Assembly (NCBI GenBank): GCA_030704615.1
Contig: CM060731.1
Coordinates: forward strand, 45,880,001 to 45,944,000
Source of the DNA: Takakia lepidozioides
Taxonomy: Eukaryota; Plantae; Bryophyta
Length of the DNA: 64,000 nucleotides
Direction of reading: 5' to 3'
Shown: positions 6,206 through 63,200 of the stretch, piece after piece
Layout: every line of letters starts with the position of its first letter
Numbering within the stretch: the first letter of the stretch is position 1
Notes under the pieces: generated by a model
Databases searched by the model: none
What the model was told of the DNA's origin: nothing
The model's input: only the letters and a program-made list of their open reading frames with translations
Position numbers and translations under genes: made by a program

Positions 6206-6264
6206 CTCTGCAACCTTCTCCTTCTCCCTCTCTCGCAATTCCACCCAAGCTCCAGGTTTGGGGT

Positions 6265-6273
6265 TTAGGGTTT
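6265..6273 (-). promoter_or_regulatory. Telo-box (AAACCCTAA) in the GMPS 5' region
   Basis: TTAGGGTTT on the plus strand, 60 bp upstream of the ATG. Telo-boxes are typical of plant growth and biosynthesis gene 5' regions. Confidence 0.5.
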
Positions 6274-6647
6274 GTGGCCTCACGGATGAAAACTCATTCA
6301 GTCATCGTGTTTCGGTGAAGTCCATAAATGGCTGTTGACGTTTTCTTTTTCCCTATTTGTGAGGGGTTAAAAGGTTGACAGCAATGAGGCTTACAAAGGG
6401 GATAACCACCTTGTGGAAAGGTGAGCAGCTCAGGGATAAATGTTTGTTGGCCTATCATTGTCCTGATCCTTTGGCTCTTACTTATGTCGTTGTGTGACTC
6501 ATGCATTACATGATTTATTCCGAGATATACTCATTTAGGAGAGCCACTGTCAAAAGAGCACTATGAAACGTTACCCACAGACATATTGTTGGTGATAAAT
6601 CACCCTCAGCGATACTGTGGCCTCATGGAATGTAACGATCACAGGAT

Positions 6648-6791: not shown

Positions 6792-6913
6792 GCTGTACAT
6801 ATATAGGGTCGAAAATTTTACACCATTAAAAGCAATTGTTCCCTGAGTGGCTGGAGCTAAGATCTCAACACACTTTTTGAGAAATACTTCTGAAGACCTG
6901 CAGCGCCGCCAAG

Positions 6914-19418: not shown

Positions 19419-20994
19419 GTGGGGGAGGTGCACATTGTGAGTGTCATCACGGAGTTACCCAGGGGTTCTGAGGGGAGTACGGCTACAGGCAGTAGCAGTG
19501 AGAGTGGGTTCACTAGACGAGGTATTCATTTCAGACCACCTTCACCTCCACCCTCAACTAGTGCAGAGTCAGACACAGACTCGGAGGCTTCATCAACAGG
19601 TGTGCAGTTTCATTCGCCATTATTGTGGGACGACATGGAGGAGATGTATGGAGCTACCAAGGGGCCTCGTAGGTACTCTGGAGCTGTGGGCACAATCGAG
19701 TTGGATGACTTTATCCAGGAGTTCGACAGCTGGTGTGATTTGCAGCAGATGCGCAATCCACAGCTATTCACCCCATTCATGGCGTGGAAGCGGCTGTTCC
19801 AGCATTTGGAAGGCCCGCCTATGGACGATTACCACGAGTTCAGGCGAGGACATGAAGCAGAGATTGAGGAGTGGAGGATGTATTGGTCACCTGACTATGT
19901 CTCCATTACTCGAGGCACGACGCGACTAGTAGCTGCATCAGTACCAATATCTCCCACTGCCAGCATTAGTAGTGGAACAAGTAGTGCCGGTACTTCTGCA
20001 GGTGGTACCAGTTCAAAATGTGCTACTACTCCTCCTGCCACGACTACAACACATGTGCCTAGATTCAACCCGGTGGTGGAGTTCTTTCAGGAGTTGCGGA
20101 GGAACTACCAAGGTGTACGGACAGAGAAGCTGCGAAGTTTGCAAGACTTCCAGCGCAAACCCAGTGAGAGCTTGCGAGAGGCCTACACTCGTATGAGGCG
20201 CTTGATAAGTGTGACCCAAGGGGTTACTGAAGCTCAGGCAATCCAGTTCTGGTATGGAATTTTGGACAAGGAGCTCAGGAGAAGGGTGCGGGATGCACCC
20301 TGTTACAAGCAGCCCAACCCACATTAGCAGATGTGTTTCTGCTGGCTGAGCGGATTGAGCTCAACATGGTGGAGGAGCGAGTTGTTACCATTGGATTTGG
20401 CAAAGACATGCCTGCACGAGGCACAGCTGCCAGCCCACAGGCATAAGGGACTGCCCAACAGCGTGGTCAGGGGGGCAAGGTTTCCCAACCCAAGTTCCAT
20501 GGAGTTTACAGGGGACCTCAGGTGCAGAGGCCCGTGGCATCTTTTGCAGGCCAACAGCAACCAGGGGTGATATGTTGGACATGTGGAGGACCCCATGTCA
20601 AGAGAGATTGCCCAGAGAGTGGCAGAAGGCCGGCACAAGCACAGCCTGCACAGTTGCAGTGTAGGCATTATGGCAAGTATAGGCATGGAGATGCCCAGTG
20701 TTATGACTTGCATCCTGAGTTGCGCCCAGGCCAGTTCCAAGGGAACAATGGTGGCCGGGGGCGAGGTGGACCAGCCCAGAGAGGACGAGGTGGTTGGGCA
20801 TGAGGTGCAGGCCAAGGGCAAGCTCAACATGGCCAAGGACGCGGAGGTCAGGGTGTTGACCAAGGCATGGCCAACCGGCTTCAGCAGCTAGAGCAGAGGC
20901 TCGCTGCCATGGCTACAGCTCAGACGGTACCGGCTCCCAGGCGGGATGGTCCACCTCCTGCGCCTGAGGGAGGAGATATGGGAGGCATGGGATT
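19419..20994 (+). mobile_element. Ty3/Gypsy gag region (frameshifted), cut by a nested chromovirus
   Basis: Capsid-like LDDFIQEFDSWC and FQRKPSESLREAYTRM; Zn knuckles CWTCGGPHVKRDC and a degenerate CRHYGKYRHGDAQC; RG-rich tract. Ends abruptly at the LTR TG at 20995. Confidence 0.8.
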
Positions 20995-22134
20995 TGTCGC
21001 GCACCTCCCTTCAGTAAGCTCCCCTTCACGTCATAGCTACTCGCTTTGATGCGCGCGCCTGACTCCCAACCTGGCCGCCGGGCCAACTTGGAGCTTCGGC
21101 TGCTCACCGGGACATAACGGTCCCCCTTCGCTTCCCACTAAATCCTCCACCTATTTGGGACTAGTGGAATTCCCTTTGGTAGATGGCAGTCCGGAACAGC
21201 TCCCCACTCTTTGGTCGCTTTGTGGCTCGCTCGCTTACTAACTAATTTTTGGTCACCAACGGGCTTGCACCGTTCTCGGGGTTACTACTCCTTATATATA
21301 CTTCTGTAGCTGTCCGCGGGGGTTTCGTTCTCGGGGTTACTACTCCCTATATATACTTCTGTAGCTGTTCGCGTCCCATGGTAAAGAACCAAACCCCACA
21401 CTTGACTCTACTCTCCACTAGCTAGTTCGGCCGACTTCCTCCAAGTCCCGGCCAAGGGTGGAGCCTCTCCAGCTCCTCCCAGTGCACTCTTCTTGGCCTA
21501 CTTCAAGGCCAAAGGAACGATCCTCCCCGAGGATCGAATCGCCTTACTGCAACAACATTGCTTGCGATCGCTCATGATGCTGCTTTTGGCATCACCTTGA
21601 GCAAGGGTTCCCTGGAACCCTCTTTGACTAGGAAGATAACCTTGAACCAACCGTGCGCCCCAATCACTACAATTGGGTCCGCCTTGGAATGCTGGCCTGA
21701 GGTACGGGAACACGCCGAAGCCGCACTACGACTTCGTCCCGAGGCTACACGATTATAGTACGTGAACGGAAGCACGTAGCTTCCGCGTTAGCCCGCACTA
21801 CAAGGCAACCCCCTCGGTAGCGCAGTTATAGTACGCGCACGCGCCAGGTGCGCACTAGCACGTGAACTCCCAAAGAAGTCGCAAGTTTCCTTGCCCCTTG
21901 GATGGGGGTCACCCGATTTCGGCACTACGCAAACACACGATTAACCCAATTTACCTCTCCCACTTTTATAAGCTAGCATGCATTCTACATACTAGCCAAC
22001 GATACCATGCATCACCATTCCAAACAAAATAGGACGCACAACATTTGGAACCCATTTCCTTTATAACAAATTTTTGTAGAATACAAGTTTTTGTAATCGG
22101 ATTCCTAAGCTAGCTAAGCCGGGCTAAGCATGCA
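20995..22134 (-). repeat. 3' LTR of the chromovirus (~1.1 kb) preceded by a PPT
   Basis: On the minus strand the PPT GTGGGGGAGGAAA follows the pol stop and is followed by TG at 22134; the LTR ends GCGCGACA at 20995. An alternative start TGTTGTGC at 22043 is possible. Confidence 0.65.
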
Positions 22135-25100
22135 TTTCCTCCCCCACGCTCCAAGGTTGATGTCCCCATCAACTCTTCTTCCGCTTTTGAGGTCGCCCTT
22201 CGAAAACTGCGACCGCCTCGGATGCGTTTCCCATTTCTGAGGCACGCACCCAAGATGCCTCCACCTGATGATAGCCCTTCCATTTGACGAGATACTCCAT
22301 TTCTCGGTTCCTGAACCTCCTCGACTTAAGTATTGCCTCCATCTCGTACTCAGGTTCATTCTCATGATCCAACAGCATAGGTGGCGGACGCAACACTTGG
22401 TGCCGATTCGGACGCGCTTCATCTTTGAAGTAAGGCTTCAAAAGGGAGACATGGAATACTGGGTGCACCTTGCTGTTTGCCGGCAGCTCCAATTCATACA
22501 CATCCTCATTCATAACCTTCCGAATGCGAAAGGGTCCCGCATACGGAGGTACGAACTTCGGACTGACTTCCGGAGGTAGTCGGAAATTCTTGATGTTCAA
22601 CCAGACCTCTGTGCCTGCCTCAAATTTCACTTCCCTCCGCTTCCGATTCGCCTGCCTTTCATACCGTTTCCTGGCTTTGGCAATGTTGTACTTTGCGAGC
22701 TTCAACAAACGCTCGCGTTTTTCCAGTACCGCCGCTACTGCCGGTTCTTCGACGTCCTGGGCGGCCCAACTTGTCGGCACCAGAGGTGCTTTTCCATAGA
22801 CCAATACGAAAGGGGAAACTCCCGTTGCGGAGTGTTCTGTGTTATTATAACAGAACTCTGCCGCGTCTAAGTGTTCCACCCAGTCTATTTGGTCTGCCGA
22901 CACGTAATTCCGCAAGATCTGCTTCACTACGGAATTCACTCTTTCTGTTTGGCCGTCGGTCGTAGGTCGGAAGGCGGTGCTCATCTTTAGCCTCGTCCCC
23001 ATCTTCTTCCAGAGTGCCCTCCAAAATTTACTCGTAAACTTTGGATCGCGGTCCGAGACAATATCCTTCGGGACTCCATGATGCTTTAAGACGTGGGCGA
23101 AGTAAAGTCGCCCTGTCTCCTGCGCCGTTGCCGTCTCCTTGGTGGGGATGAAATGGCCTATTTTACTGAACCTATCCACCACCACCATGATTGCATCGAA
23201 TCCTTTTGACAGCGGCATAGCAGTCATGAAATCCATCGAGACGCTTTCCCAAGTCCCCTCTGGAATCGGCAAGGGTTGAAACAGCCCCGCTTGCTTTTTG
23301 TACTCGCTCCGGTTTTGTTGGCATGTGGTGCATGTCTTGACATACTCCTCTGCCTCCTCCCTCAGTTTGGGCCAGAAATGCCGCAGTGCGCTTGGCTCCG
23401 CCGTGGCCCGCAAGCGGGCTATCATGGCATTCTCTCAAGAGGCTATCTCTGATCCCTCCCTTCGGCACGTAGAGACGTTTTTGCTTATACCGGAGCAGTC
23501 CATTTTGCAAGTGGAACTGCGATTTAACCCCCATCCTCAAGTCCTGCATCACGGACTTCGCCAGCTCATCCTTCCGGCAAGCCTTCCGGATCTTCCTTTG
23601 GAGCGTCGTCTCGCCCTTGTACACCAACAAGAGCTGTTGCTTTCTACGTAAAGCATCGGCCACCACGTTGTCTCGTCCCGGTTTGTCCTGGATATCCACA
23701 TCGAACACCGCCAAAGTATCTTGCCACCTAAGTTGTTTTGGGGACAACTTGGGCTGCGTGGCAAAATACTTCACCGTGACATTGTCCGTGAACACCTTCA
23801 CTGGGTTGGAACCAACATAGTGGCGCCAAAGCTCAAGACAATGCACCACCGCCTTCATCTCGTTTTCGTGTGTCGGCCACCGTTGCTCCACTTCATTCAG
23901 TTTCTTACTTTCGTAAGCCACTGGACGTCCATCTTGCATCAGTACACCCCCAATCGCGAAGTCCGACGCATCTGTATGTATCTCGAACGGACGATCGAAC
24001 TCCGGGATTTTCAAGACTGGAGCTTCCGCCATCCGCTGCTTCAATTCAGCAAAAGCTTGGCCACAAAAAGTGTTCCATGCCCAGACTTTAGATTTACACA
24101 GAAGGTCTGACAGCGGCCCCGCAATCTTGGCGAAATTTCTCACATACTTCCGGTAATAGGAGGCGAGTCCTAGGGAGGATCGCACTCCCGAGACCGAAGT
24201 CGGAGGCTCCCAGTACAAGATCGCCCTCACCTTTCTGTCATCCATTTTGATCCCATCCTGTGTAATCACATGCCCCAAGAACTCCACTTTCGTGACCCCG
24301 AATTCGCATTTTGAAGCTTTGGCGTACAGCTTCCCTTCCCGCAACTTTTGGAACACCCTTTTGAGGTGCTCCAGGTGTTCCTCCTTTGTTTTCGAGTACA
24401 CCAAGATGTCGTCGATGTACACGATCACAAAGTCATCCAACCACTCATGAAAAAGGTTGTTCATCAGCGTGCTAAAGGTCGCCGGTGCATTAGTGAGCCC
24501 AAAAGGCATCACCAAGAACTCATAAGAACCATACCTTGTCCTGCACGCGGTCTTCTCCTCATCTCCTTCCGCCACCTGAATTTGATGATAGCCGGAGCGC
24601 AAGTCGATCCGGCTGAAATACTTCGCTCCTGCCAACCGGTCGAAAAGGTCGTCGATCCTTGGCAAAGGGTACCGGTTTTTAATAGTCACCTTATTCAAAG
24701 CCCTATAATCGACACACATCCGCAGCGTCCCATCCTTCTTGTCTGCGAATAGCACCGGGGCTCCGTAAGGTGACTTACTCGGCCGGATATACCCCTTTGA
24801 CATTAGATCCTTGAGCTGAGTTTTCAGCTCGACCAACTCCCTGTGGCTCAACCGGTAGGGTGCCTTGGCAGGCGGTTCCGATCCCGGTATCACCTCAATC
24901 TTGTGGTCAACTCCTCTTCGCGGTGGCAAGCCGCTTGGTAAATCCTCCGGCATCACATCCTGGTATTTCTCCAAGATCCCCTTGATGCTCGGCTCCCCAT
25001 CGCCTTCTCCCTTCACTTCTCTAATGTAAAGCAAAAACTGGGGCTCGTGTGCCTCCTCCACGGCCCACTCCCTTGCTGACAGAAGGTTTATTTGCCCTCC

Positions 25101-26201
25101 CACGGATTTGGGCGTTTCCGACACTCGTAAGGCCTCGCCACCATTCCCACATGGCAGCGTGACTACTCTCCTGCGGCCATCTATGACCGCTCCGGATTTG
25201 CTCAAAAAGGTCATCCCCAAAATGAGATCCACTCCATCGATCTCGCAGATGGTGAAGTTCTCACGTCCCTCCCAACTCCCCAGTTGAAGAGGAACATCAA
25301 ACGCCAACCTTGTCGCCAACTGTGGTTCTCCTTTGGCAGAACACACCTCAATAGAGGCCCCCACATCACTCGTCGGGAGTCCCAACTTTCGCGCCGCCGC
25401 CGGCGTCATGAAGGAGTGCGACGCTCCTGTGTCCACCAACAACGACACGTTAGTTCCGGATATTATCCCATCCACGAACAATAACTGACTCCCTTTACGC
25501 AGGGCGCCAGTTTCCTGATACAACTCACAAGAATAGTTGCCCACCTTGCAAGTCCTGGCGACCACCGCTTCCACCAAGCGACTGATGGTATCTTCCGACA
25601 GCTCCGTGGTTGCCCGAGTCATGTTCAATTGTCGAGGTTTTGTGCACTTCTTGGCCATGTGCCCGGGCTCCCCGCAATTGAAACACACTCCATCAAAGGT
25701 TGCCTTCTGTCCGCCATAAGCCGCTCCACCCGCTTTTCCTTTCGAAGCACCGGGTGCCGCCTTGACGTGTGAAGGCCCTCCCTTCGATTTCCACGTGCCA
25801 TTGTCGCCACGTGGCCTATCCCACTTCTTTTCCGGTCGGAAGGAGTCACCTTCCCGTCGGGTCTTCTTGTGGTTCAGCTCCGTACGGCCTTGTCTCTCAC
25901 CCCTAGGGACATCCGAGAAACATTCAGCCCTCTCAATTGCCTCGTTCAAAGTCTTGGGTGGCTTCTCCTCCAACTTCCGCCTGGCCCATGGGGCCAGTCC
26001 CACCACAAAGTTGAAGACCATTTTCTGGTTCTGCCATGTCCGCGACTTCGAGCAACAGCACATTGAAAGCCTAGACATACCCCCGAATGTCATCTTTTGC
26101 TTCAAATTCCTCATCTTGTCCCGGGCAAGCCAGGACGCGTTGAGGGGCACAAACTGTCTCTTCATCAATTCCTTGAACCCACTCCAGTTCAAGGTTTCCG
26201 G
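20995..26201 (-). mobile_element. Ty3/Gypsy chromovirus (Galadriel-like) gag-pol plus 3' LTR; 5' end lost in the gap
   Basis: Zn knuckle [14 protein letters not shown]; protease [10 protein letters not shown]; [11 protein letters not shown] and YIDDILVYS; RNase [10 protein letters not shown] and [23 protein letters not shown]; integrase (frameshift near 23390) MDFMT, SDRDPKF, DGQTER; GPF; chromodomain EYEMEAILKSR..YLVKWKGY..ASW. ORFs 23172-26192 and 22169-23425. Confidence 0.95.
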
Positions 26202-26701
26202 NNNNNNNNNNNNNNNNNNNNNNNNNNNNNNNNNNNNNNNNNNNNNNNNNNNNNNNNNNNNNNNNNNNNNNNNNNNNNNNNNNNNNNNNNNNNNNNNNNN
26301 NNNNNNNNNNNNNNNNNNNNNNNNNNNNNNNNNNNNNNNNNNNNNNNNNNNNNNNNNNNNNNNNNNNNNNNNNNNNNNNNNNNNNNNNNNNNNNNNNNNN
26401 NNNNNNNNNNNNNNNNNNNNNNNNNNNNNNNNNNNNNNNNNNNNNNNNNNNNNNNNNNNNNNNNNNNNNNNNNNNNNNNNNNNNNNNNNNNNNNNNNNNN
26501 NNNNNNNNNNNNNNNNNNNNNNNNNNNNNNNNNNNNNNNNNNNNNNNNNNNNNNNNNNNNNNNNNNNNNNNNNNNNNNNNNNNNNNNNNNNNNNNNNNNN
26601 NNNNNNNNNNNNNNNNNNNNNNNNNNNNNNNNNNNNNNNNNNNNNNNNNNNNNNNNNNNNNNNNNNNNNNNNNNNNNNNNNNNNNNNNNNNNNNNNNNNN
26701 N
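26202..26701. other. Assembly gap (500 N)
   Basis: Run of N. Confidence 1.
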
Positions 26702-34063: not shown

Positions 34064-37000
34064 GTGGTTGGAGAAGCTGATGAAGAAGAGATTTGTAGTG
34101 TCATTCCAAAATTGCGGGCAATGGGAGGAATGGTTGGATTCAAAAGTGAGTTGCAGGGAATTGATTGGGAAACTTTGAAGCAGGTGCCTGTGAAGTTTTT
34201 GCCGGAGACTTTTGATGGCGATATTCTATTCGAGTTGCCTCCTCCTCCGCGAGTTGGAGGTGTAACAATCATGATGCATGGAATGGACAAGAAACACGAC
34301 GGGCACCCGTGGTGCAGAACAAAAACATCCAATATTCAGAATGATGACAAGCTTGTTTCAGGAGGACAGTTTGCAATGGACACCTTAGGTGTGATAATTT
34401 GAATTGCAGACACTTTCTTCAGTCTGGGGTTCATAATCAAAGCGAATGGGAGGGTCTGGCGGAAAATCCATTTCAGCCTGGGACTGCCCTTCCACCGGCA
34501 AACACTTTCGTCTGCAAATTCTGCAAACTTGTGCCATCCTGCTTGGCGCTCTGCGGAGCAAGAATGTACTATGTTGTCCACCGTTTGAAAACAATGACAA
34601 GAGCTCGTGTGCATTTCGGATTCCATAACCATCCTGTCTCGAAGGGGGATTACAGGGAGAGTGTTGAGACAGTATCGAGGTTGATTAAACAGGAGTTCGG
34701 GAGAAACCCATCCGCAACAACATCTGCAATTGCTCTTGGCGCAAGCAAGTCCTTCTTGGAAAGCCATATTTTGAGTGAAGGGGATTCTGTGGGGACTAAA
34801 CTTGACGGTGCAGCATTGGACCTGGTCATGGATTATTTCTCCACTTTAAGTTCACCGAACATTCGGCATCAGATCAATGCATTGAGAATGGGCTCTGGGA
34901 TCAGAGGCTACATAGACAATATTTTGGAATTGAAACGAGTGAGCAAGTACGATTACATCCAGGACAATGTATTCCCAGGTCAAGGTGTCATCAAAGTTTT
35001 TCTTTTCAAAATGTCGACTGTTGGGGAGGGCAGTGGGGTTAGCCTCGTGAAGCGGATGCAGAAGACTGGGGACTTGCAGAACTGTTTTCTTATGTTTGAT
35101 CATGTGAAACGAGTGAAGGATTGGACGACAATGGTTTGTCATGTCTACGATCCAGTGTACCAACGAGCTATGACAATTGCAGTTTGTGACACGCAATCCG
35201 AGGATACGGAATCCCAGAAGCTCATGTGGAATTCCCTGATACGTGTCATGGGCTGCCATCTCCAAATTTTGCAGGTTTCATGGCGGATAATGCTCAAGCA
35301 AATTTCAATGCTGTTTGTATTGTCTTCGGATCGGGCGACCCAAAAGTGCCTATGCCAGGAAGAGAGTGTACATGTCTATGCCATTGGACACAATCTCTGG
35401 AAAAATATACAAAGTCGGACATCAAACGAGAGATGCAGACTCAACACCGTAAATTGTGCAAAGAGTACAAAGATGCTAGAACAATGAAGGAGGCGGACAC
35501 TTTGTTCCAGACAATTCGTGCATGGTGGTTCTCTTTTGGAGCTGCATCACTTGAGAGTATGAGAGCATTGGAAGATTGGCTGGCGTTTTGGCACTTCCGG
35601 TATAGACAGTGGGGAGCAGCCATGACAATGGTACGAGGCTTCTATTTCATGCTTTATTCATACATTTGCTTTCCATATTTTTGACTCATTGCTTTCTTTA
35701 TGTTGTTTCCTGTGCACTGTTCTGAAGTGTGGTTATCCTCTTTGCAGAACATGTCCATTGAGGAAATGGCGGACATGCCATCTTGCAATTTGGCAGAAAC
35801 TGTGCACAACGCATGGTTGCAGCAGTCTGGGAAACGAGGTCGGGATTTGTATGTGGCAACAACAGATGATTTGATACGTGCCTTGCAACAACAAACCCGA
35901 TACCGTGATTTCTTACGAGATGGGGTTGGTGGCAAGGGTCCGGACAAATGGGAGTTGATGTTGCGTGCTGCAAACAGATCTGGGGATCCAATCAAGATAG
36001 CACGGGCGGTGAGCATGTATGCCCAGGGAACGCCACTTGTTTCTAGAGTTCCACATCTTGAAGGGGAGGAGAGATTCGGCTCCTGTAAGAGGAAATTGAA
36101 CACTCCACCTGGTTCGGATTCAGATTCCCACAAGGCAGACCGTGATAACTTCTCGAAGCCTCGTGTTCCCCTGCATGACAGCTCCATGTCCGGAACCTCC
36201 ATTGTGGAGGAACCTCCAACACGACGGCAAGCTCCAGCATCAAACAGTGCCACTGAAATGGTGCAGGAGAGAAACAACCCCCTTGATGTGCTTGAGTCCG
36301 CATGCCTCGACCACGTTTGGCACATAGAACGCACAAGTGTAGGGTCTCGTGTGAAATGTACAGCGATCAGGGCAACTAATTTCGAGAAGTGCACTTCATC
36401 TATATCCAGAGGTGGTGCCCGAACTCCTGCTCCGACTTTCACGGGCTTGATGCGTCCATACGGTCAACCAGAAGCCAAGAACCACAAGTTCTGGTTTTGC
36501 GCAGATGATTGTGCCAGATGTGTGCATGGAACTGTGCGTCCTTCCGTAGTGATGAAGCCATCTCCTCCACCCGTTTGGCCCGTGAAGGTGGGAACACATC
36601 TCAGCTTTCACGAGATTGAAATGCTGGAGGAGGCAGGTTTTTCCCTTGCGAGACAACCCCAACTCCATGCATGTGCTACTACTTCTGCGTCCTCCCGGGT
36701 CCCCCCGGCAAATCCTGACTTGTGGCCAACCAAACGAGATGGAAAGCTCGTTCGGCGTTTCCCTCCAACCGCTGAACATTTTGGCAAAGTGGAGTCCACA
36801 AGAATGCTCCAAGCTCGTGTTGGAAGCACCACGGAAGTACCCGATCCAGGATATGGTCGGGTATTCACAATCATCACTTCCACATCTGCTGTTCATGACA
36901 GGACCTACGACATCACGGTTTCCAATTTCCCCAATTGCACATGTCCTGATTTTGTGAATATGCTATCAACCAGTTTGGGCAAGAGAGGTAAATTCATACC

Positions 37001-37133
37001 CTGCAAACATTTGTATTTCATATTTTTGAGGAGGATGGTTTGCGATCCCAAACGTGACAACTTCATTCACCAGGCCACTATGAGTTTCAACGAGGTCGAT
37101 ACTCTTTTGCAGCGGGATACAACACATGGGTAG
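34064..37133 (+). pseudogene. MULE-type DDE transposase with GCM-like Zn domain and C-terminal SWIM finger
   Basis: Frameshifts near 34355 and 35250; phase-0 intron 35631-35747. Putative DDE residues in MFDHV, FMADNAQA and CNLAETVHN; CxxH motif CLCHW; SWIM CTCPDF...PCKHLY. May start further upstream (ATG 33631). Confidence 0.8.
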
Positions 37134-47308: not shown

Positions 47309-47919
47309 GTCACCTCATCTCTTTGCTTACTTCCATGATGTGCCTTCTCCAAGTAACACCTCCCTCATGTAATGTACAATTTATGAAAAATAAATGGATA
47401 AATTCTCAAGGTTTATTATGGATGAAAGAGATTTCACTATTCACAAAGAAGAGCCATACGCGACTAGCCGCTTGTTTTTATCCTCTTGTGTGCTTGTGTG
47501 TGATCAAATTCCAAATACAAAATTATTTGAAAATTCGGTATTGTGTACAATTAATACTTTCAACTTTGTTCATTTACTGGTCGAGAAAGAAGGTTGCTAC
47601 AGTGAAGATGGTATAATTTGAGCTCTGGGTTTATTGTTGGTTTCATGAAGATAATTAGTACCATGTTTTGAAACGAAAAGAATTACTTTTCCTAAGTTGA
47701 AATTGCAACTGAAGATGGTCCTAGAAAGCTCTTATAAACAAGCGGCTAGTCGCATATGGCCCCTCTTTGTGAATAGTGGAATATACTTTCATCCATAATG
47801 AACCCTAAAAATTCACCCATTTATTTTTTCATAAGTTGTTCAATAACATAGATATAACATGAGGGAGGTCTTACCTAGAGAAGGCACATCGTGGAGGTAG
47901 TTTTCAGAGAAGAGGTGAC
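47309..47919. mobile_element. MITE/foldback-like long inverted repeat
   Basis: Arms 47309-47477 and 47736-47919 are diverged reverse complements (e.g. GCGACTAGCCGCTTGTTT / AAACAAGCGGCTAGTCGC and CACTATTCACAAAGA / TCTTTGTGAATAGTG), with a ~260-bp spacer. Confidence 0.75.
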
Positions 47920-49381: not shown

Positions 49382-49829
49382 TGCAGGATTCGGGCTGGCG
49401 ACAACGGAGAACCCATAACTTGGTTGCACAGTGTGCGGATTCCTGCCTGTGCTGCACTCACTGCAGAGACGATGTGCAGACATGGTTCCGAGTATGGAAG
49501 GAAAAAGTTTCTATAAACTGCGGATGTATGTATAGTGAAAAGGGCGAGTGTCTATCAGTGGGGCAGCGACAGGTGGTAGTGTTGTCAGGCACGGGTTTCT
49601 GACATGGAAGCTGAGGTCTGCGCTGCAGTTGCCGGTTTGTAGAGGGGGAGGGAGAGGGGGTACGGAGGGTCTGATGGATTGTAGAGAACTTACAATTGTA
49701 GGAGTGGGGGAGAGGGATGACAGCTGGGTGTGCTCGAGATGATGGGTGTTCACCTAGCAGTCTGGATCTGATCTCCGTTGGGGTGTGATTGAAGTGTGTG
49801 TGTCTGGGCGTTGATTGTGGTAGGGGAAG

Positions 49830-52154
49830 ATGTCGAGGATGGAGGTGCTGCAGCAGCATGGCGGAGGTGTAGGTGTAGGGAAGCTGGATTCACCGCGGGC
49901 TGTATTGGCAGGACCGAGTTGGACAGATCTGGCGTGTGCACTGGAGGATCTGAAGGAGTGTCAATCGCCATCGCTGGGGATGGACGGGGAGGAAGCTGGG
50001 GACTGGCTTCGAGATGATCCCATGGATGCGATGCTGCCTAGCTTGCCTTTCCCGGAGCCGATGCTGGAGGATGCAAGCAGTGGGGAGCTGTGTGCGCAGC
50101 TGGGGTCGTCAGGATCGCCTTCAGCTGGAGAATCTTCTGGGGAGGCACCTGCAGATCCCGCCTTGTCTTGCTTGCTGGATGGGAACATGCGTGCCATGTT
50201 CAAGAAAGTGATGGTGAATGAGGCCACTCTCAATCAAGCAGTTGAACGGCTAGGGGGTGGCGATAGAGGCCTCAAGTCTCTGTTGGGATACATTATGTTG
50301 TGGTTCAAGGAACGCAATGCCACAGATTGCTCAATGGCACAGTGTATGGAGCAGCTGCGCCCAAAGTTACCAACCGGTGACTTTTCTCCGGCTGCAGGCT
50401 ACAACAGCAGCTTTCCTGCGCTGTATGACGGAGGGCCAGGACACGTTTGCGATAGATATAATGGAGTCAGTCGGTTGAAGCGGCCCTTCTCGGCAGAGAT
50501 GGTGCACCAAGGCCCGGATGAGTTGCAGCACCACCGTTTCAAAAGCCGTCGGGTGTCTACGGGCGTGGATGCAGATAGTGTGGGTGCTTTTACTGCAAGA
50601 AACCTTTTGAACGCCGGGGCAGGGGGTGTGTGCCACCAATATTCTTCCCAGATTGAGTTGTCTGCCCTGAACTCGCTTGCGCATAATAGCAGCATGAACT
50701 GCGAGGAGGGGCGGCGGCACCAGCTCTCTTGCTTGCAGCCAGGATTAGGGTGTGGTCTAGGTGGTGCAAAGGTGTCCCCAGCTGCCACGACGCGGGCAGC
50801 ACGCAAGAGCCGCATGGCACGGCAACGGCAGTCCATGGCGCACCACCATGGGCGAAGCACCCCTCATGGTGGAGTGGGTTGCGGGGGATGGACTGTCCTG
50901 CCAAGTGGAGGAGACCTCAAGAATATGTCTCCATGCAACTCGCAGATGCAGCCTGCGACCAAAGGACAGGTATCAATCCTGGCATTATACATGAATGTGA
51001 TTGCCGGGGTTGTGGTGGTTGTTAGGCATGGCTAACGGGGTAAATGGTGATGCAGGGGCGGACTTTGGATACTCTGCTCTTTCTGCTGCAAAAAGAGCTG
51101 CGACCCAGTGATGTCGGCAATTTGGGCCGCATAGTTCTCCCCAAGGTCAGTGACCAGTGTCTGCAATCATTGGACAGAGATACTATGGGAGGGAATGAGG
51201 TTGAGTGTTTGACAGAAAATATGCTCTGCGTGGTGCAGAAAGAGGCAGAGAATCACTTGCCATATCTAGCAATGAGAGAAGGACTTTCCATTGCAATGGA
51301 GGATTTTGACACCAGCAGGGTCTGGAATTTTCGATACAGGTATGTTCTAGACCTGGTTCCTGTTTTTCCTGTTGCAAAGTATTGAAGATGGTGAAATGTG
51401 TTGCTGACATGGGAAAGAGCGGATGGTGGCAGGTTCTGGCCTAACAACAAGAGCCGTATGTATTTGTTGGAGGATACTGGTGAGCTGACTGCCTCACTGT
51501 TAGTGCTTGAGGCATGCATTAGAGCAGCAGGATTACCTCAGTTGCTCTGCTTGTGGAGGTTGGGCTGACGACAAATGGTCATGTGATTGCAGGAGAGTTT
51601 GTAAAAATGCACCATCTGGAAGAAGGCGACCTGCTCATCCTGTATAGAGATTTTCAGGGGAATTATGTAAGCATTCATAGTTTTGTCTTTACCTTCTTGT
51701 ATGACGGGCTGATTGTGGCTTTCCATGCTTTTCAGAAGAAACTAATGGGGGGAAATGAGGGGCACAGGTCCTGAGAGGCAAGAAGAATGTTCAACTGGAT
51801 GTAGCAAGCACTGGGGCTGGAACGGTACCCACCGACTCCCAAACTGGGACTGGAAGGGTGATTCAAGAGGGCAGTGTAAAAATGGAAGAAGTACAGGAAG
51901 AGGGATTCCAAGTATGTGCACCGGGAGTAGAGGTATGTCGGAAGGTAGAGCTAGAAGAAGCCGGGGAGGATCCATTTCTCAAGGATGTCATGCAGGGACT
52001 CGAGGATGAGACAAGCTTTGGGGGAGTAGGTTTGCAACCCTTGGAGCGCTTTCCAAGCCTGGAATCAGGTGACGTTTCTATAGATGAGATTTTGGGGTTG
52101 GCTGATGTGGGGCTTGTTGCTACTACGGTGCCTAAAGGTGAACCGGTTAGTTGA
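49830..52154 (+). CDS. ABI3: ABI3/VP1-like B3 transcription factor, 6 exons, 612 aa
   Basis: Exons 49830-50969, 51056-51145, 51239-51339, 51433-51479, 51593-51666, 51768-52154 (GT-AG, 1839 nt). B1-like [16 protein letters not shown]; B2 [18 protein letters not shown]; B3 [26 protein letters not shown]...[22 protein letters not shown]. The intron layout matches the ABI3 pattern. Confidence 0.95.
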
Positions 52155-53807: not shown

Positions 53808-55195
53808 CATGTTTTTTAACAAATACACAGTCAGACAAGAGGTTGAAAAACTCTTTTGTTACGACGAAGCAGTTCAACTCCCTCAGTTGATATCTCTCAA
53901 TATTGGTTCAACAGCATGCAAGTTTCTTAACAAGAACAATGTCACACATGAGTTTCTTGTTGAAAAACTCTTTTGTATAGAAAAACAGTTCAATTCCCTC
54001 GATTCATATCCCTCCATATTGTCTCAAAAGCATGTTGGTTTTTGAACAAATACACTGTCAGACAAGAATTTCGTGTTAAAATATTCTTTTGTTACGGCCA
54101 AGCAGTTCAAATCCCTCATTCATATCCCTCCAAAAACACTTTCAGACGAGAGTTTCATGTTGAGGAAATGATGCAGATTTTCGAACAAAACCCATTTCAG
54201 ACAAGAATTTAGTGTTGAGAAACTCTTGTGCTACGGCAAAAGGAGTTCAAATCCTTTAGTTCATATCCCTCCATATTTGTTTAAAAAACATGAAGGTTTT
54301 TGAACAAAATCATTGTCATCCTAGAGTTTTGTGTTGAGAAACTTTTTTGTCACGGCAAAGAGTTCAAATCCCTCGGTTCATATTCCTCCATATTGGTTAA
54401 AAAACATGCAGGTTTTCGAACAAAAACACTGTCAGAGAAGAGTTTCGTGTTGAGAAACTCTTTTGTTATGGCGAAGCAATTCAAATCCCTCAGTCCATGT
54501 CCCTTCATATTGGTTCAAAAACCTACAGGGTTTTGAACAAAAACACTGTCAGATAAGAGTTTCGTGTTGATAAACTCTTTTGTTATGACGAAGCAATTCA
54601 ACTCCCTCAGTCCATGTCCCTCCATGTTAGTTCAAAAGCGTGCAGGTTTTTGAACAAAAACACTGTCAGATAAGAGTTTCGTGTTGTTGAAAAACTCTTT
54701 TGCTATGGTGAAGCAATTCAACTCCCTCAGTCCATCTCCCTCTATATTGGTTCAAAAAAATTGTCAGATAAGAGTTTCGTGTTGAGAAATTCTTTTGTTA
54801 TGGCGAAGCAATTCAACTCCCTCAGTCCATCTTCTTCTATATTGGTTTAAAAACACTGCCAGAGAAGAATTTCGTGTTGAAAAACTCTTTTGATATGGTG
54901 AAGCAATTCAAATCCCTCAATCTATGTCCCTCCATATTGGTTCAAAAGCGTGCAGGTTTTTGAACAAAAACAATGTCAGAGAAGAGTTTCGTGTTGAGAA
55001 ACTCTTTTGTTATGGAGAAGCAATTCAACTCCCTTAGTCCATATCCCTCTATATTGGTTCCAAAACATGCAGGTGTTTGAACAAAAACACTATTAGAGAA
55101 GAGTTTCATGTTGAGAACTCAATATTTGTTTAAAAGCATGTACTGTTTTGAACAAATTCACTGACAAACAAGAGTTTCGTGTTGAGAAACGTTTT
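53808..55195. repeat. Tandem array of a ~117-bp unit, about 13-14 copies (some partial)
   Basis: Consensus TTTTGAACAAAAACACTGTCAGATAAGAGTTTCGTGTTGAGAAACTCTTTTGTTATGGCGAAGCAATTCAA.TCCCTCAGTCCAT.TCCCTCCATATTGGTTCAAAA.CATGCAGG. Confidence 0.92.
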
Positions 55196-56179
55196 TCAAT
55201 CTTTGAATTCATTACTAAAAATTGTCGACATTTGATATTATCAAAGCGAAACAATCTCAGTCCTTCTCAGATTCTATGCTAAAATTCACGGCACAAGAAG
55301 GAATATCCTGGTTTTATTGATGATCTAAATGACAGATGTACATGTCAACTCCGTTCCTAAAGGAAATTTCAGTAAGCGAAAGTATCCTCATTTGTTATTC
55401 TGTCTATATTGTCCTGTAACTCATTTTAATCAATATCGCTATATTTTCTGCTTACTGTGTGTTTGGTGTTATTTTCGGACGAGGGAACAAATTTATTTTT
55501 CGAGTTCTATTTAGCATCACATTTCAATAACATTAAAAGTATATTTGTATCAACTACAACTATTTTGTTTCCATTGCATGGTAGAAGCTAACGCCAAGGA
55601 GTGGATTGAATTGAAGAGAGCTCGTGAGTTCAAGGTCTTAAAGGATCAATTGTGAAGGGAGATAGAGAAGAAATGCCAAGCAGCAAGTCAACCCAGCCCA
55701 CCAGTTCAGCCCCAACCTATGACAAAGCCTCAAGTTCCATTGGATAATTTGAACTATGGACCGAGGGCCACTCGCACAAATGTGCTTGAGGGCGAGTTCT
55801 CTCCTCCAAGATGAACTTGGAATTCTCCAACCTTTGTGCAAGGAAACATGGTTGATGATGACTATTCGCACCTGCAGTTGCACCAAAATTCGGTTCCCTT
55901 CACAACTCAAATGGATTATGCACCAAAAAGTTGCCCAAGTAGCATATGGTTCCAATTTATTTAGGGTCCACTTTGGTAGCATGAGGTAGTTCAGGCTATT
56001 ACTACAATTCAGATAGGGATGGAAAGACATTCTTCAGTCTTAACCAAAATAAAGTATGTCCCTGATTACTTCACCTTGCATAATAAGAATAGAGATGGAG
56101 AGGTTAGAGGTGTCCAAATCCTACATGCTATATGTCGTTGGAACCAGGTTGGAACCACACATACCTGCTCTTGCTGATC

Positions 56180-56734
56180 CGAGCGGAGCAATAGCTTTTC
56201 AAACACTCAATAGCTGTAGATTTCCCTCGCTTGCAATATTCTTCAAGTGAGTCGCCACTTGCTCCATATGCCAACATTCTTAAAGCAGCCGTTGTTTTTT
56301 GATAGGGACTCAATCCCGGTTTGCCACATGCATCATACCTTTGTGTAAAACATGATCATAGTTTGCAACAACATCTTGAATTTAGAGGAAAAGCTCCCTT
56401 CTCATCCGATATCGTCTTCCGAAGATTTTTCCGTCATACATAGGATTCTCTGCACAGAAGTAATCTCTGTAGATTCTTCGGTGTCCTTCAGCATGGTCTC
56501 TTGCAAGGTTGGGCCTCATACCTGCCTCCTACTAGGCTTACTGCCGCCCCTAATAGTAGGTTCAGGTTCGAGTTGGTGAAGAGCAGCCCCTTGAAGCAAC
56601 ATATGGATATCGTAATCGGCCAGGTTAGCAGGGTCATCAGTGAGCTCTCTCATCAACTGTGCTTGCCTCTGCCTCCAAATTAGGTCCATGTTCTCTCCCC
56701 CAATGAAATTCAGCACGATCCTATCCAATTCCAC
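56180..56734 (-). mobile_element. PIF/Harbinger transposase N-terminal remnant
   Basis: HRRIYRDYFCAENPMY..FGRRYRMRRELF..TQRYDACGKPGLSPYQKTTAALRMLAYGASGDSLEEY is the classic plant Harbinger transposase N-terminus. The catalytic core is missing. Confidence 0.85.
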
Positions 56735-57384: not shown

Positions 57385-60234
57385 AATGGTGGCTTTATCA
57401 CACAAAGCCTGAAACTCCCCCAAGAACTCTCTCTCTTGATCCGTGAGTACCTCAGCTGGAGCACCGAATCGGCTCAACACACGATCCAAGAATGCATACG
57501 CAGCCTCCTCACTAGCCTTGTCAGGCAATGGAACCAACTCAATCCACTTGGAGAAGTGCTCCACATCACCAACACATATCTGTGGTGGCGCATAGTCAGT
57601 GGCAACGGTCCTGCGAAGTCAAGACTCCACCTGTAGCCCAATCCCATGATTGGTAAATGATGCAACAATGGTCTAAGGGCGTTGAATGAAGCACGCACCC
57701 TGTCACACACCATGCACATATCCATGAACTATTGCACCTCTGTATGTATACCACGCCACCAATACTGCCCCTGAAGTAAACTGTGAGTGCGTCGCACTCC
57801 AAAAATGCCCCAACTCCTCATGGGCATGCCGCACCAACTGTGCACGCTGTGTGGGGTGAGGCACAATCCTCACCCGACCATCCTCCCATACTCGGAGCAG
57901 GTGTTTCCCCTTCCACTTGAACCTCTTGGCTTGTTGTAGGATCCGATCCCTCTCCTTGGCAGTCATAGTGGTTGTCGTGTCTCTAGTACGGAGGTAGTCC
58001 AACACAGTCGAATCCTCATGTATATCTCTGGTACCACCTGGCTCATCACTAGCCTCAGGGTCCTCAGACACTTCGTCTACAGTCATCCATGTTGTAGGTC
58101 CAACCTGACCTCCCGATGCCAAGATACACAAAAAGGCAGATGCATGTCATCCCGGCACCATCTCCTCGTCCGTCTCACCATGCCACCGAGCTCCAGTGTC
58201 ATCGTGCTGGCTCGTGCATGGATTGCGACTCAATCCATCCGCATCCCGATTGACCAAACCCGGTCGATGCACAACCTGAAAGTCATACTCCTGGAGTATG
58301 AGTGCCCACCGTGCAAGCTTCTCCGTAAGCTTGTTTGACTACATCAACCACTTGAATGGCTGGTGATCCATGACAAGGGTGAAGAGATTGTCGTATAGAT
58401 AGCACCTGAAGTGTGCCACGGCCCACACTGCAGCTAAGCACTCTCCCTCATATGAACTATATTTAGCCTCTGCAGCGTTGTTCGAGCGGCTAGCATAAGC
58501 CACTACGAACTCTCTTCCCTCATCATCCACATGTGTGAGCACCGCTCCAAACCCCAGCATGCTCCAATCCGTATGCAGCTGAAAGGGACGCCCCCTGATA
58601 GGTCGTCTCAGGATAGGCGCCGAAGTCAACCTCGCCTTGAGCTCTTGGAAAGTTCGTTCCTGCTCATCTTCCCACTGCTACTCCTGGTCCACCTTGGTCA
58701 ACTTGGTTAGAGCCTTTGCAATGGCACTAAATCCCTTGACAAACCGTCTATTGTTTGTCAACCCCATGAAAGCTCGAACTCGGCTTACATCTGTGGGGCG
58801 TGGAATTTGTGCAATGGCCTCTACCTTAGTCTGCTATACCCCCAATCCTCCAGGATATATCATGTGACCCAGATACTCAATCTGGTTGTGGAAAAACTTG
58901 CACTTCCCTGGATGCAACTTCAATCTGTGCGCTCTCAAGCGCTCAAATACCACCTGAAGGTGTTTCTCATGCTCCTCCACCGTAGCACTAAAGATGATGA
59001 TGTCATCTATGTAGCACCGAGCAAAGTCCACCCCTGCTAGAATCCTATCCATGACTTTCTGAAACTCTGCAGGAGCGTTCTTAAGCCTAAATGGTAAGAA
59101 CCGCCACTGATATAGGCACTCTTTGCCGTGCTCATTGATCCCCCATAATGTCGTCTTCTGCTTGTCCACCTCCTTGATCGGCAACTGATGATATCCGGAT
59201 CATAAATCCAAAGGGCTAAAGACCTTAGTATACCCGATGGCATCAAAGATCTCCTCTGGTGTTGGCATGGCATACTTATTGGACTTGGTCTGACGATTTA
59301 TAGGCCGGTAATTACCGCACATACGTCTCTCCGTCCAATTGCCATAAACATCCTTCTTGGCTAGCATCACTGTGGCTGAAGCATACTCTCCACCAGAGAG
59401 CTCCACCAAACCTGCCTTCCAGAGATCTTGAGTCCTCATCTGAATCAAAGACCTCTCCATATCACTGTATCTATAGGGTCTCCGAAAGATTGGCGTGTCA
59501 GTGGCCAACTCAATACGGATCTCTTGACACTTCAGTGCTCCCAAGTCCTTCAAACTGAAGGCAAAGCAATTCCTGTAAGCCCTTAGGAGCCGCGGTATAC
59601 GTCGTCTATCTCCTCCAGTGACAATGGGTCCAATGTCAGGCTCCCAATTGTCCTCCGTAACTGCAACCTTAAGTCGAGTGGACGCGTCCAGTGGTTACTA
59701 TGTTTCAACCTCTTGAGCAGTACTCCCTACCAGCTTAGTCAATGACAAGGCCTCATCCTGCCCCATCATCTCATCCTCGAGGACTTCCTCCACCCGAGAA
59801 AAATCCCCAACCTCATCCATCACCGCCACTTTGGCTGCCAACTCCCTCTGAACCTCGAGCACCTCCCACGTGTGCCATGGATGCCTGCACCCCGTGGTCC
59901 TCACATGTTCGCCCCCACTCACTGCCTGTACCGTCTCGGTAGGCAGAGAGACCATCGAGGGAAGTGTACTCCGCACTCTGCGTTGCTCAGCCATAGCCAA
60001 GCTGATAATCCAGGTCAAGCAATTGAGATCCATTGCTTGCCCCAACACCTGACAACGTGATGCCTTAGAAAGAGACGACACCGCCATGGTACCAGAGGTA
60101 AAACCCATCGCCCGCTCACGCTCGTCTGCATTAGGCTCCACTCACTGCTGCAACTAAGCATCCCACAGGAGGCCAGGTCCACTATCCCGGAAAGCATGCG
60201 ATCCTGGGAAGCTGAGCAGTGTAGGTAGTGCTGC
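57385..60234 (-). mobile_element. Decayed Ty3/Gypsy pol: DNMT C-terminus, RT, RNase H, integrase
   Basis: RT PIFRRPYR, YAMPTPEEIF, LKNAPAEFQ, YIDDII; RNase H HTDWS and YSSYEGECLAAVWAV; integrase HEELGHF, WSLDFAGPL, VLTDQ. The upstream in-frame segment ALPTL...EPNADERERAMGF...RCQVLGQAMDLNCL resembles C5-MTase motifs IX-X. No LTRs seen. Confidence 0.88.
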
Positions 60235-63200
60235 TACCCACCGAACATTCAACTGGGTACTACGCTGTATTCGCCCATTATGGCCCACTCCAAACACGCC
60301 AGCAAGCACTGGACTGGCATCTTCAAGGTCAAGTTGCTACATCCAGCCAGGGACGGCATCGCTCTCTTGAAAGGTGACCGAGCCTTCCTCATAGAGATGT
60401 CCTCTGGCATACCAATGCAGGGTAAGGTGGAAAAAGCATTCGATTTACAATCGACAATGGAACATCTCTCTTTATACATGACAAGCGAAAGCCTACACGG
60501 AACTATCAGCCACAAGCTTACAATGAATCTCATCATGGAAGCTCACGTTCATGGTGATGAGTACGAGATCCTCTACACTCACAAGACTGGGCCAGAGTCC
60601 AAGTTCTGCTTCATATACGTCACTTCCGAGGACACCAAACAAAGGATGCTGACACAGGGCATCCGATTCGGGCGCACGCTGATCAGACCACAACTGCAAT
60701 TTTGGCAAACTAGCATGACGAGTTTAGCATCTACCCCACAGGAAATCGTGGCAGAGAGAAACGCGCTTACACTCATTGTGAAAAATCTCAACCAACTGCA
60801 TCCACAGGCAGCTATCGAGGACGCCCTACACTCTATCTTTGGAAAAGACAACATCACACAAATCTATTTTTGTTCGGTTGTTCCTGAAGAAAAGATCAAG
60901 CGCACTGGCATGATCTTGATTACGTGCAAAAACCCCAGTGTCTACACACAGTGGGTCAACAAACCGCATGTGTTGGTCATCGACCGCTACATCAACTTCG
61001 AGCCACATAACAATAGTCTGAACGGAGCTGTACCACCGGTAAAGGAAATTTCTCGACAAGCTCCGGGTGGCGAACATCAACCAGGCGCTAGCCGACACGG
61101 TGAACTCAATTGCAATCAAACCAAACTCGGGATCTTCTCGTGGTCACGAAGCTATGATGTCTGAGATAGACAAAAAACTAGCTACTCATGCCATATCGAT
61201 AAGAAAGGATATTCATGGAGAACTTTCTGCAATGGAATCGCGGGTGGCCACCACCTTGACAAAGCAACAGGAGGAACACCATGCGTATATGTTGTCTCTG
61301 AAGGAATCGATCACCAAGAATCTTGGAGCGAATCTGGCGAATTTCTTTCACCATGCAAAGTGGGTGTTGGCCAAGTTAGGCATCACTAACTCCTCAACTG
61401 CAGAGGGTGACGGCAACAACGCGCTTGATGTACAGACTGGTCAATACCGCCAGTTAGCGCGGAGCGAAGAGGAGCAGGCCGACACAAACCCCAGAAGGCC
61501 CCCCCCCCCGCGACACGGGTGACAGCCACATGGCCATGGCCTAGATCACGGCAGCACCTGATAATCAGGGTTAGCAGGTCGGGAGCTTCCCTGTTCTCTC
61601 AACCGCGCTCGTCAATCCCGCCAATGTATAATCACCCTGTGCGATCATGGACCACCGCCGCCAAAAGACAACTTCACCCTCATCTGCAGCTACAGTTTAG
61701 CCGCTAGATACCAATTTCTCTTTTTCTAGTTCTGCTCCTTTCAGTCTGTGTTGTTTGCCCCGCGATCTCTCCTACATCAATAAAAAATCTTAGTCCTCTT
61801 TCTACTGATCTACGTGCCTCTACAAACCTGCTAAGCGCCCCAGGGTGGTACGATCCCACAAGACTCCTCATTATGTCCACTCGCATGCTCTGCACATAGA
61901 GATGTTACGACAACTTCCACGCCAACGACCGAACGGTACGCCTCTCCACCCACATAGATCCCACGCTACATGAAATACTAACACCGCCGTGCCCACACTC
62001 TTCACTCACTTCTGCTCGAATCACACCTTCCTGCAGCAATATAAACATTCTCCAATAACTACTAGTCACTGCTCGATCTCTCTGATGTCCTGGCCAACGA
62101 ACTCCTGCGATCTGTTGCGCCTCTACAAACACCCTGCCGCAGCTTACCACCTTCCACAACAACCTTGTCCCGCAATTTACCACCTTCCTTCACCCGATGG
62201 ATCACGGACTAGCCCCGTCTCCAACGCTTCAAAATTCAAAACATGCACGTCTACCTAACTACTGGCGACGTATTGCCCTTGCAATTCCCTTCTCAATTCC
62301 CCCAATCACAATCATCCATCCACCGTACCCTCTTCCGTTTTTCTAAGCCACCCACATCCATCCACCCAAATGATATCTCATGTACCACTGACACTGTTAT
62401 ATACCGCCTCTATGATACTATACTACCCCTAATACGATGCCCATTATTCATTCCGTATACTCTGCCTCCATACCACAATAATACCCCCTAGTCACATCTA
62501 CATACGTCCACCATACCACTAGTTACTTGCACCCACTATTATGGGTAGAGCCCCTTATTAACGGATGGATGAAACGAACTTCATCCAAAACCCCTACCCC
62601 ACAATCCGCATCATCTCCCCTATGGGCACCCATATACATATACATCCCCATCCAAGGTATACTCAATATACCCTTCCTATTCTCTCCACCATGCAAGTTA
62701 CTCTACCCCGTTCTTACCCATGAATCATATGAACACATAACCCCGCTACCTCCAACTACCCTCACACTCTTACAAGTTTTTGCCCTACCCATTAACCATC
62801 TCATTACCCATAGCCCACACGGGGATACCCACTACACCTAGGAAGGTCCACAACACACACCATCATCCCCCCTCCCATGATACCTCCTACATAGATTACC
62901 TGCTCTGACTCATCCTATTACGATGCGGAGACCTAAACCAAACCCGGGCCCTACCACATTAACGAATTTTCAGAGAACTCCCCATAGACGCACAAGACAG
63001 ATACGCTACTATACTTCCAACCAGACACTGTGTCGCCAGGCACAATATCGAACACATTGTTGACCATTTCACCCCATTTTTCCATGCCGACAAAACCTAT
63101 AACCATACGCAATACATCACAAAATTTGGACTACCGTTCAAATGCTACCCGACACTCTCAAAACCCTCTTAAGACTAAAAATCCTTCCCCGCGCCACAGC

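Follow-up and report, generated by a model that had tools for sequence, protein, structure and literature searches.

Introduction

Retrotransposons that carry a DNA methyltransferase (DNMT) of their own have been described from Symbiodinium and Klebsormidium nitens (PMC5890265), and a further source gives such elements for 'streptophytes and dinoflagellates' (PMC12344493). De novo CG activity was shown for one of the encoded enzymes, SymbioDIRS-Dnmt3 (PMC5890265). Here we describe the remnant of a related element in a 64,000-nucleotide stretch of the genome of the moss Takakia lepidozioides (assembly GCA_030704615.1, contig CM060731.1, positions 45,880,001 to 45,944,000; this whole stretch is referred to as the window). 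On the minus strand at 57391-60234 it combines the tail of a predicted methyltransferase with reverse transcriptase (RT), RNase H (RH) and the start of an integrase (INT). Together with its relatives, it leads us to consider probable a bryophyte Ty3/Gypsy-type element that encodes Gag, protease (PR) and DNMT, then a conserved, leaky UAG in a CAR-YY(A) context (R, purine; Y, pyrimidine), then RT, RH, INT and a PHD finger, with the methyltransferase made at Gag level and likely methylating the element's own complementary DNA (cDNA).

The closest described system is KnitGypsy-Dnmt3 of K. nitens. Both have Gypsy domains and DIRS-like repeats in the order A-coding-B-A-B, and in both a Dnmt3-related DNMT is under purifying selection (PMC5890265). 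The partial K. nitens protein GAQ93235.1 also has the zf-CCHC-protease-DNMT order, and in a FastTree phylogeny (support 0.88, midpoint root) it groups within the same broad clade of DNMTs, albeit as a single partial K. nitens DNMT with no RT. In contrast to KnitGypsy-Dnmt3, the hosts of the elements reported here are land plants, and a conserved stop intervenes where the K. nitens DNMT shares an open reading frame (ORF) with RT and RNase H (PMC5890265). The same source calls the KnitGypsy DNMT acquisition lineage-specific, whereas we find related DNMTs in elements of Closterium and Scenedesmus.

Two further groups of systems are relevant. The sequence UAG-CARYYA is the type I (tobamovirus) readthrough motif (PMC5382211, PMC2194720), and readthrough is known in gag-pol of murine leukemia virus (MuLV) and in pol-env of soybean SIRE1 (PMC5382211, PMC2194720, PMC5009743). 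Like type I systems, the present elements have a single in-frame UAG followed by CAR-YY(A) between structural and polymerase regions; unlike MuLV and SIRE1, they have the stop after the protease and a captured DNMT rather than at the end of gag or pol, and readthrough is here predicted. The Ty3/Gypsy clades Chlamyvir, Tcn1, Phygy, Selgy and OTA of REXdb (Neumann et al. 2019, PMC6317226) resemble our lineage in their GAG-PROT-RT-RH-INT order, in the occurrence of 4-bp target site duplications (TSDs) and in the GAG-PROT first ORF of some groups. The accessible text of PMC6317226 mentions neither a PHD finger nor a methyltransferase.

We found no report of a land-plant DNMT-Gypsy element or of such a readthrough site in a literature survey that covered subscription journals thinly; supplementary figures 13-14 of PMC5890265 and the DNMT trees of PMC12344493 may include land-plant copies. 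Such elements in land plants are not mentioned in the accessible portions of 10.1101/363937, PMC10952607, PMC9033089, PMC6317226 and PMC5009743.

Results and Discussion

Identity of the methyltransferase segment

The original prediction, made from the window sequence alone, had read a minus-strand peptide next to RT as the end of a cytosine C5 methyltransferase, in the frame of RT and separated from it only by TAG TAA at 59700-59695. Peptide, shared frame and stops are as it described them: the frame from 60234 runs through TAG TAA into RT, RNase H and the integrase start. On its own, the segment matches no Pfam family, so the proposed check against PF00145 failed, and a PDB sequence search gave no match below E 0.5. 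The Pfam match in relatives covers mainly motifs IV-VI, the part cut away in the window copy. Used as a query (residues 1-180), the segment matches 37 database proteins (5 longer, 32 of similar length), of which 31 have PF00145 among their precomputed assignments. The best match is Marchantia Mp_4g09160 (64% identity, E 7e-43), and among the other leading ones are Calypogeia, other Marchantia models and Sphagnum fallax; the Marchantia matches are Gag-protease-DNMT proteins.

In the alignment the segment falls on the end of the target recognition domain (TRD) and on motifs IX and X, and it is 79% identical to Calypogeia P0021 over 84 columns. A profile built from 19 relatives matches DNMT3A with E 1e-21, DRM-type enzymes with 3e-10 to 7e-7, HhaI with 3e-6 and DNMT2 with 0.007. 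The structure model of the DNMT domain of the open copy L054 has a pLDDT of 89, and its top Foldseek matches are DNMT3B/3A (E 1e-19, target TM ~0.8). Motifs I, IV (PC), VI (ENV), VIII, IX and X occur in order in the open copies L020, L048 and L054, so that the catalytic motifs I, IV and VI lie between protease and RT, where intact relatives had been expected to keep them; only motifs IX and X are left in the window copy. Motifs IX and X, the 37 protein matches, the DNMT3-like profile and the predicted fold bear out the C5-methyltransferase identity, and the window segment is thus assigned as the tail of an enzyme whose predicted fold is DNMT3-like.

The DNMT domain of the family is, by codon comparisons, under purifying selection, the ratio of nonsynonymous to synonymous rates (dN/dS) being 0.14-0.22 in five unsaturated pairs (nine other pairs were saturated). 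Against five relatives, the window DNMT tail differs at proportions of 0.16-0.29 of nonsynonymous (pN) and 0.76-0.83 of synonymous (pS) sites.

The window copy

The family features recognized in the window are as follows.

57391..58026, minus strand: integrase H2C2 domain and core start, with frameshifts near 57801 and 57563; cut at 57391
58285..58674, minus strand: RNase H, PF17917/PF17919 (Pfam)
58836, 58680 and 58341, minus strand: decay stops in the RNase H part
58858..59646, minus strand: reverse transcriptase, PF00078; YIDD at 59013-59002; one stop at 59202
59647..59691, minus strand: linker after the stop, in the frame of RT and without ATG; 15 nt shorter than in two other read copies (runs X5 and X9)
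59692..59700, minus strand: TAG TAA CCA, most likely the family-conserved ORF1 stop with its decayed readthrough context (relatives read TAG CAR YYA/YYC)
59701..59976, minus strand: C-terminal tail of ORF1 (Gag-PR-DNMT), with an HPW..W motif common to Marchantia, Calypogeia and Sphagnum-type relatives
59977..60234, minus strand: C-terminal third of a predicted DNMT3-like C5 methyltransferase (TRD end, motifs IX and X), from protein matches and alignment
60042-60028, minus strand: motif X (GQAMD), inside the methyltransferase segment
60138-60100, minus strand: motif IX, inside the methyltransferase segment
60156 and 60144, minus strand: in-frame decay stops in the methyltransferase tail
19635..20920, plus strand: frameshifted Gag piece from this DNMT-Gypsy family, which breaks off ahead of the protease; identity to the Marchantia P0020 N-terminus 62%

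With nine in-frame stops in total, the window copy is dead. Its PHD finger and 3' repeats are gone, and both element ends are lost. Beyond both ends (57391 and 60235) dozens of read contigs from the host species continue in other sequence; past 60235, 47 contigs of read run X1 and 33 of run X2 continue in a common, different sequence. Both cuts therefore belong to the window copy alone, and the absence of the catalytic motifs, which intact copies keep (I, IV, VI and VIII), is explained by the cut at ~60234, as had been supposed. The stretch 57391-60235 is highly repeated in host-species reads, with a summed depth of ~10^5-10^6 (a depth, not a copy number), and in run X1 the summed depth is only ~200 just beyond 60278. 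The paralogues in the host species were available as short read contigs, and 40 of their 367 difference rows were viewed. The observed/expected (o/e) CpG ratio is 0.5-0.6 for the fragment, compared with 0.9 for a second Gypsy element of the window and 0.6 for a host gene, which makes CpG depletion uninformative for this fragment. Overall, the window copy is a dead, doubly truncated bryophyte Ty3/Gypsy-type element of a high-copy family.

The Gag fragment at 19635-20920, followed by short direct repeats at 21271-21373, is probably a separate insertion from the 57391-60234 copy. That the two are halves of one insertion was considered and is unlikely, since they lie on opposite strands and 39 kb apart. 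In place of the element's 5' part stands a sequence of low read depth (60229-61522, plus strand) with two ORFs of 311 and 159 amino acids; the former gave no match in Pfam.

Architecture and relationships of the family

A metagenome scan gave 79 loci (80 confirmed of 353 candidates), among which the commonest domain order is Gag-PR-DNMT-RT-RH-INT-PHD. The protease lies upstream of DNMT, in agreement with the earlier remark that none separates the window segment from RT. One complete relative, L054, contains only one stop (TAG CAG TTA) in 2,328 codons from Gag to PHD; Pfam places PR and DNMT before it and RT, RH, INT and PHD after it. L020 has two stops. The RT-RH-INT order with a DDE integrase identifies these elements as Ty3/Gypsy. 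The predicted Gypsy lineage with DNMT, RT, RH and INT indeed has land-plant members, in Marchantia, Calypogeia and Sphagnum.

In a second arrangement, RT-RH-DNMT-INT-PHD, all domains share one open frame (L068, L069, L071, P0006, P0007 and Scenedesmus P0103, KAF8056149.1). A DNMT profile search returned 640 representatives at E <=1e-30. Among the top 150, which were examined for domain order, RT precedes DNMT in 53, PR-DNMT occurs without RT in 10, and in 3 a single protein carries DNMT ahead of RT (the RNase H probe had no matches in this set, and the orders are given without RH). The DNMT and RT-RH trees are broadly congruent, and the RH-DNMT-INT group stands apart from the land-plant-type group, as drawn with a midpoint root. 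The land-plant-type group (RT support 99/98) holds the window copy near L020 and the Calypogeia, Marchantia and Sphagnum-type sequences; in a FastTree phylogeny of 144 DNMTs (midpoint root) Closterium and the K. nitens protein lie beside it with modest support. The second-architecture locus L069 carries the same ACAGCTGT junction as the Gag-PR-DNMT type, and the two architectures therefore probably represent a single lineage, within which the DNMT changed its position.

Two loci deserve separate mention. One contig (L050, 6423-11539) holds two family copies in inverted orientation. P0044, a family member close to L048 on a 2.4-kb contig, is labelled at NCBI as a methyltransferase of Candidatus Obscuribacterales bacterium; it is probably plant retrotransposon DNA inside a bacterial bin.

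A conserved stop between DNMT and RT

Of the loci, 54 include the end of DNMT together with the start of RT; many are near-duplicates, and they represent about six divergent subfamilies. A stop followed by YAR-YYN stands 17-28 codons before a conserved WEP/WPL motif in 50 of the 54, as TAG in 35 and as TAA in 15. The junctions read TAGCAACCC (25 loci), TAACAACCC (10), TAGCAATCA (4), TAACAATCA (3) and TAGCAGTTA (2), with six singletons. The hexamer after the stop is an exact CARYYA in 10 loci (7 after TAG, 3 after TAA) and CARYYC or CARYYT in 38, while two have T at +1; the exact form is found across three divergent subfamilies, the open copy L054 included, and 40 more loci are one base off. 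The codon after the stop is CAA or CAG in 48 of 50. For comparison, the in-frame codon-pair background in two open copies is 1.1-1.3% for CARYYN and 0.2-0.3% for CARYYA. The +2 codon encodes Pro, Leu or Ser in different loci but keeps the form YYN; the flanking codons have diverged beyond alignment, and substitution at synonymous sites is close to saturated when subfamilies are compared (pS 0.68-0.88). Nine bases kept under these conditions point to a nucleotide signal, and low-rate ribosomal readthrough of the conserved stop is, judging from its context, what we would expect with good confidence.

The original prediction had taken TAG TAA in the window for two deaminated glutamine codons within one continuous DNMT-RT ORF. 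The nine in-frame stops and the low CpG ratio (o/e 0.5-0.6) of the window copy agree with such damage, and algal-type relatives (P0215, P0220 and Closterium P0221) have PR-DNMT-RT in an unbroken frame, so that the fused form is real elsewhere in the lineage. The position of the first TAG, however, is occupied by a stop in 50 of 54 loci, L054 with its otherwise stop-free frame among them, and the intact proteins from Marchantia, Calypogeia and JGI terminate 93-99 residues past motif X. A continuous ORF with both stops due to deamination is thus largely refuted for the land-plant clade, and we give it hardly any credence. Decay does account for the second stop, the relatives having CAA or CAG there (48 of 50). 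Since TAG TAA CCA of the window aligns stop-to-stop with TAG CAA CCA of L020, its TAG is most likely the original programmed stop and its TAA a decayed CAR codon. The core of the original prediction is right, the DNMT-RT junction being better read as a conserved, probably leaky stop.

Downstream synthesis could also start anew, if ribosomes reinitiate, or initiate internally, at an ATG past the stop. Such an ATG lies 3-5 codons past the stop in four of eight representatives (L012, L047, L048 and L056), and the gag stop of Tca2 is bypassed by routes other than readthrough (PMC2194720). In the open copy L054, however, the 110 codons that follow the stop contain no ATG. The first one is at codon 48 in L020 and at ~80 in the window copy, in both beyond the conserved WEP motif; L020, L066 and the window copy likewise lack an ATG before the conserved RT N-terminus. 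A separately translated ORF2 is therefore quite improbable, albeit slightly less so than a continuous frame.

Removal of a stop by splicing has been proposed for Ogre elements, and spliced RNA could in principle encode Gag-PR-DNMT-RT-RH-INT here. Four annotated proteins do join DNMT to RT (P0022, P0027 and P0041 of Marchantia, P0030 of Sphagnum), and in four of eight representatives a crude scan picked up donor-like sites, 37-43 nt ahead of the stop. The four gene models, however, join at four separate points, as stop-skipping models do; no donor/acceptor pair is common to all eight representatives; and an intron would need neither frame 0 nor the six bases after the stop. In run X9, an RNA run by guess only, a 2,173-nt contig extends collinearly and unspliced through the junction, which is a weak further point. 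We regard splicing as improbable, though the least improbable of these three routes.

Several observations weigh against readthrough of a conserved stop and against the activity proposed for the enzyme. The context seen most often (38 of 54 loci, the bulk of them in a single Sphagnum-type subfamily) has C or T as its last base, which departs from the consensus at that one position, and TAA rather than TAG is the stop in 15 of the 50. The 54 loci reduce to about six subfamilies that share descent. The stop pattern is absent from L023 (TAC) and L040 (GAG), both frameshifted, the stop of L050 was not located, and L072 has TAG GGG TGC, a different context. Single-sequence folds of seven CARYY representatives gave no standout 3' structure (z -0.8 to -2.2). 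As to the enzyme, one within-subfamily pair of decayed copies has a dN/dS of 0.41, and the isolated KnitGypsy-Dnmt3 domain was inactive in yeast, a result that its authors call inconclusive (PMC5890265).

In L072 (848-960), a member of a different clade, TAG GGG TGC right after DNMT is followed by a stable stem-loop (z -3.85) and then by an open RT-RH-INT-PHD frame; this junction, a single locus, resembles type III readthrough. Klebsormidium-type Gag-PR-DNMT proteins (P0186, which is GAQ93235.1, P0232 and P0233) all end at one residue just past DNMT, and a stop or frameshift may follow DNMT in those elements as well.

Split terminal repeats and integration

Two identical long terminal repeats (LTRs) are absent from the relatives examined (L043, L060, L057, L019 and L023). 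Instead, L043 (1679-10805), L060 (1326-12352) and L057 (1925-15980) have the layout A-internal-B-(GC or AT)-A-B, and L019 and L023 have A-internal-B. A G-run (polypurine tract) precedes the first B repeat, and the elements end in TG...CA, except that L057 ends in TA. All five loci, in which both ends are available, show a 4-bp target duplication, exact in L043, L060 and L019 and with three of four bases in L057 and L023. An inspection by eye found no TGG start of a tRNA primer-binding site after repeat A.

The B-A junction is a palindrome, ACA-GC-TGT. We offer as a model only that the A...B-GC-A-B layout corresponds to a two-LTR circle (LTR = B-GC-A) opened at this palindrome. Foamy-virus integrase is reported to cut palindromic 2-LTR circle junctions (PMC1180852), which provides a precedent for a DDE integrase opening a palindromic junction as CA-GC-TG would need; unlike the foamy-virus palindrome, which is the LTR-LTR junction itself, the present one lies inside the repeat unit. 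Integration from circular cDNA cut at the palindromic CA-GC-TG junction is a tentative proposal, to which we give somewhat less than an even chance. The A...B forms with TSDs (L019 and L023) fit the circle model and B-B recombination equally and do not discriminate between them. Such split repeats may explain how the lineage would escape LTR finders; the REXdb pipeline, which needs two terminal LTRs and a TSD (PMC6317226), likely would overlook it.

Proposed role of the methyltransferase

Domain order, the stop with its context, intact motifs, the predicted DNMT3-like fold, purifying selection and split repeats with a 4-bp TSD form the basis of the following scheme. Most ribosomes would end after Gag-PR-DNMT, and few would continue to give RT-RH-INT-PHD. 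With Gag-PR-DNMT placed before a conserved leaky stop, the methyltransferase is predicted at Gag level rather than Pol level, RT and integrase being supplied by readthrough alone. That the DNMT is packaged together with Gag and set free by the protease within the particle seems rather likely to us. The freed enzyme would most plausibly methylate the new cDNA of the element, although that the cDNA is its substrate we put at about even.

The same architecture and readthrough could serve an enzyme that acts on host chromatin at the insertion site or on RNA, or that dampens the element. Alternatives of this kind are raised in the Discussion of PMC5890265, and the PHD finger after the integrase suggests chromatin targeting. 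The predicted fold, DNMT3-like and not DNMT2-like (profile E 1e-21 for DNMT3A vs 0.007 for DNMT2), speaks against them, and so does the place in the Gag polyprotein, which would put DNMT at the site of cDNA synthesis. Such other targets we judge unlikely, albeit far from negligible.

With methylation of the element's own cDNA as the preferred role, a broader history may be sketched. In an old green-plant lineage extending from chlorophytes to mosses and liverworts, a captured DNMT3 would have left its place in Pol (RH-DNMT-INT) for one on the Gag side of a programmed readthrough stop; many enzyme molecules would be packaged in each particle and pre-methylate the cDNA, and the DDE integrase would open the circle at an internal CA-GC-TG palindrome. 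As a whole, this sequence of events is speculative and on balance doubtful.

Other features of the window

The remaining features belong to other elements and to the host. Assigned by eye unless stated otherwise, they are:

3989-6301, minus strand: GMP synthase-like host gene exons
6881-10670, plus strand: non-LTR-type reverse transcriptase element with several stops
22169-26200, minus strand: second, unrelated Gypsy without DNMT, its C-terminus chromodomain-like; assembly gap at 26202-26701
34348-37133, plus strand: transposase-like ORFs with a SWIM-type zinc finger at the end
47328-47899: long imperfect inverted repeat with ~150-nt arms, similar to a miniature inverted-repeat transposable element
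49824-51035, plus strand: 5' part of an ABI3/VP1-like B3 gene; in database matches its nearest named relatives are from Sphagnum (32-33%, E 4e-27), then lycophytes (E 7e-8)
53842-55230: tandem array of 117-bp period with internal inverted symmetry
56100-56700, minus strand: Harbinger-like transposase remnant

Significance

PMC5890265 left the role of transposon-borne DNMTs to be settled, and the hosts studied there do not lend themselves to manipulation. Marchantia polymorpha, a genetic model with methylation mutants, has annotated copies with intact catalytic motifs (e.g. Mp_4g09160), which makes this role directly testable. Many transposable elements are derepressed in its met1 mutants (10.1101/363937). 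A Gag-level enzyme, as predicted from the conserved leaky stop, would constrain the roles that such a DNMT may have. Several Marchantia genes annotated as 'hypothetical' or as DNMTs are ORF1s of the element, which matters for counts of host methyltransferases. If the chlorophyte-to-bryophyte history is true, de novo methylation in bryophytes could come in part from this high-copy lineage, a source so far unnoticed.

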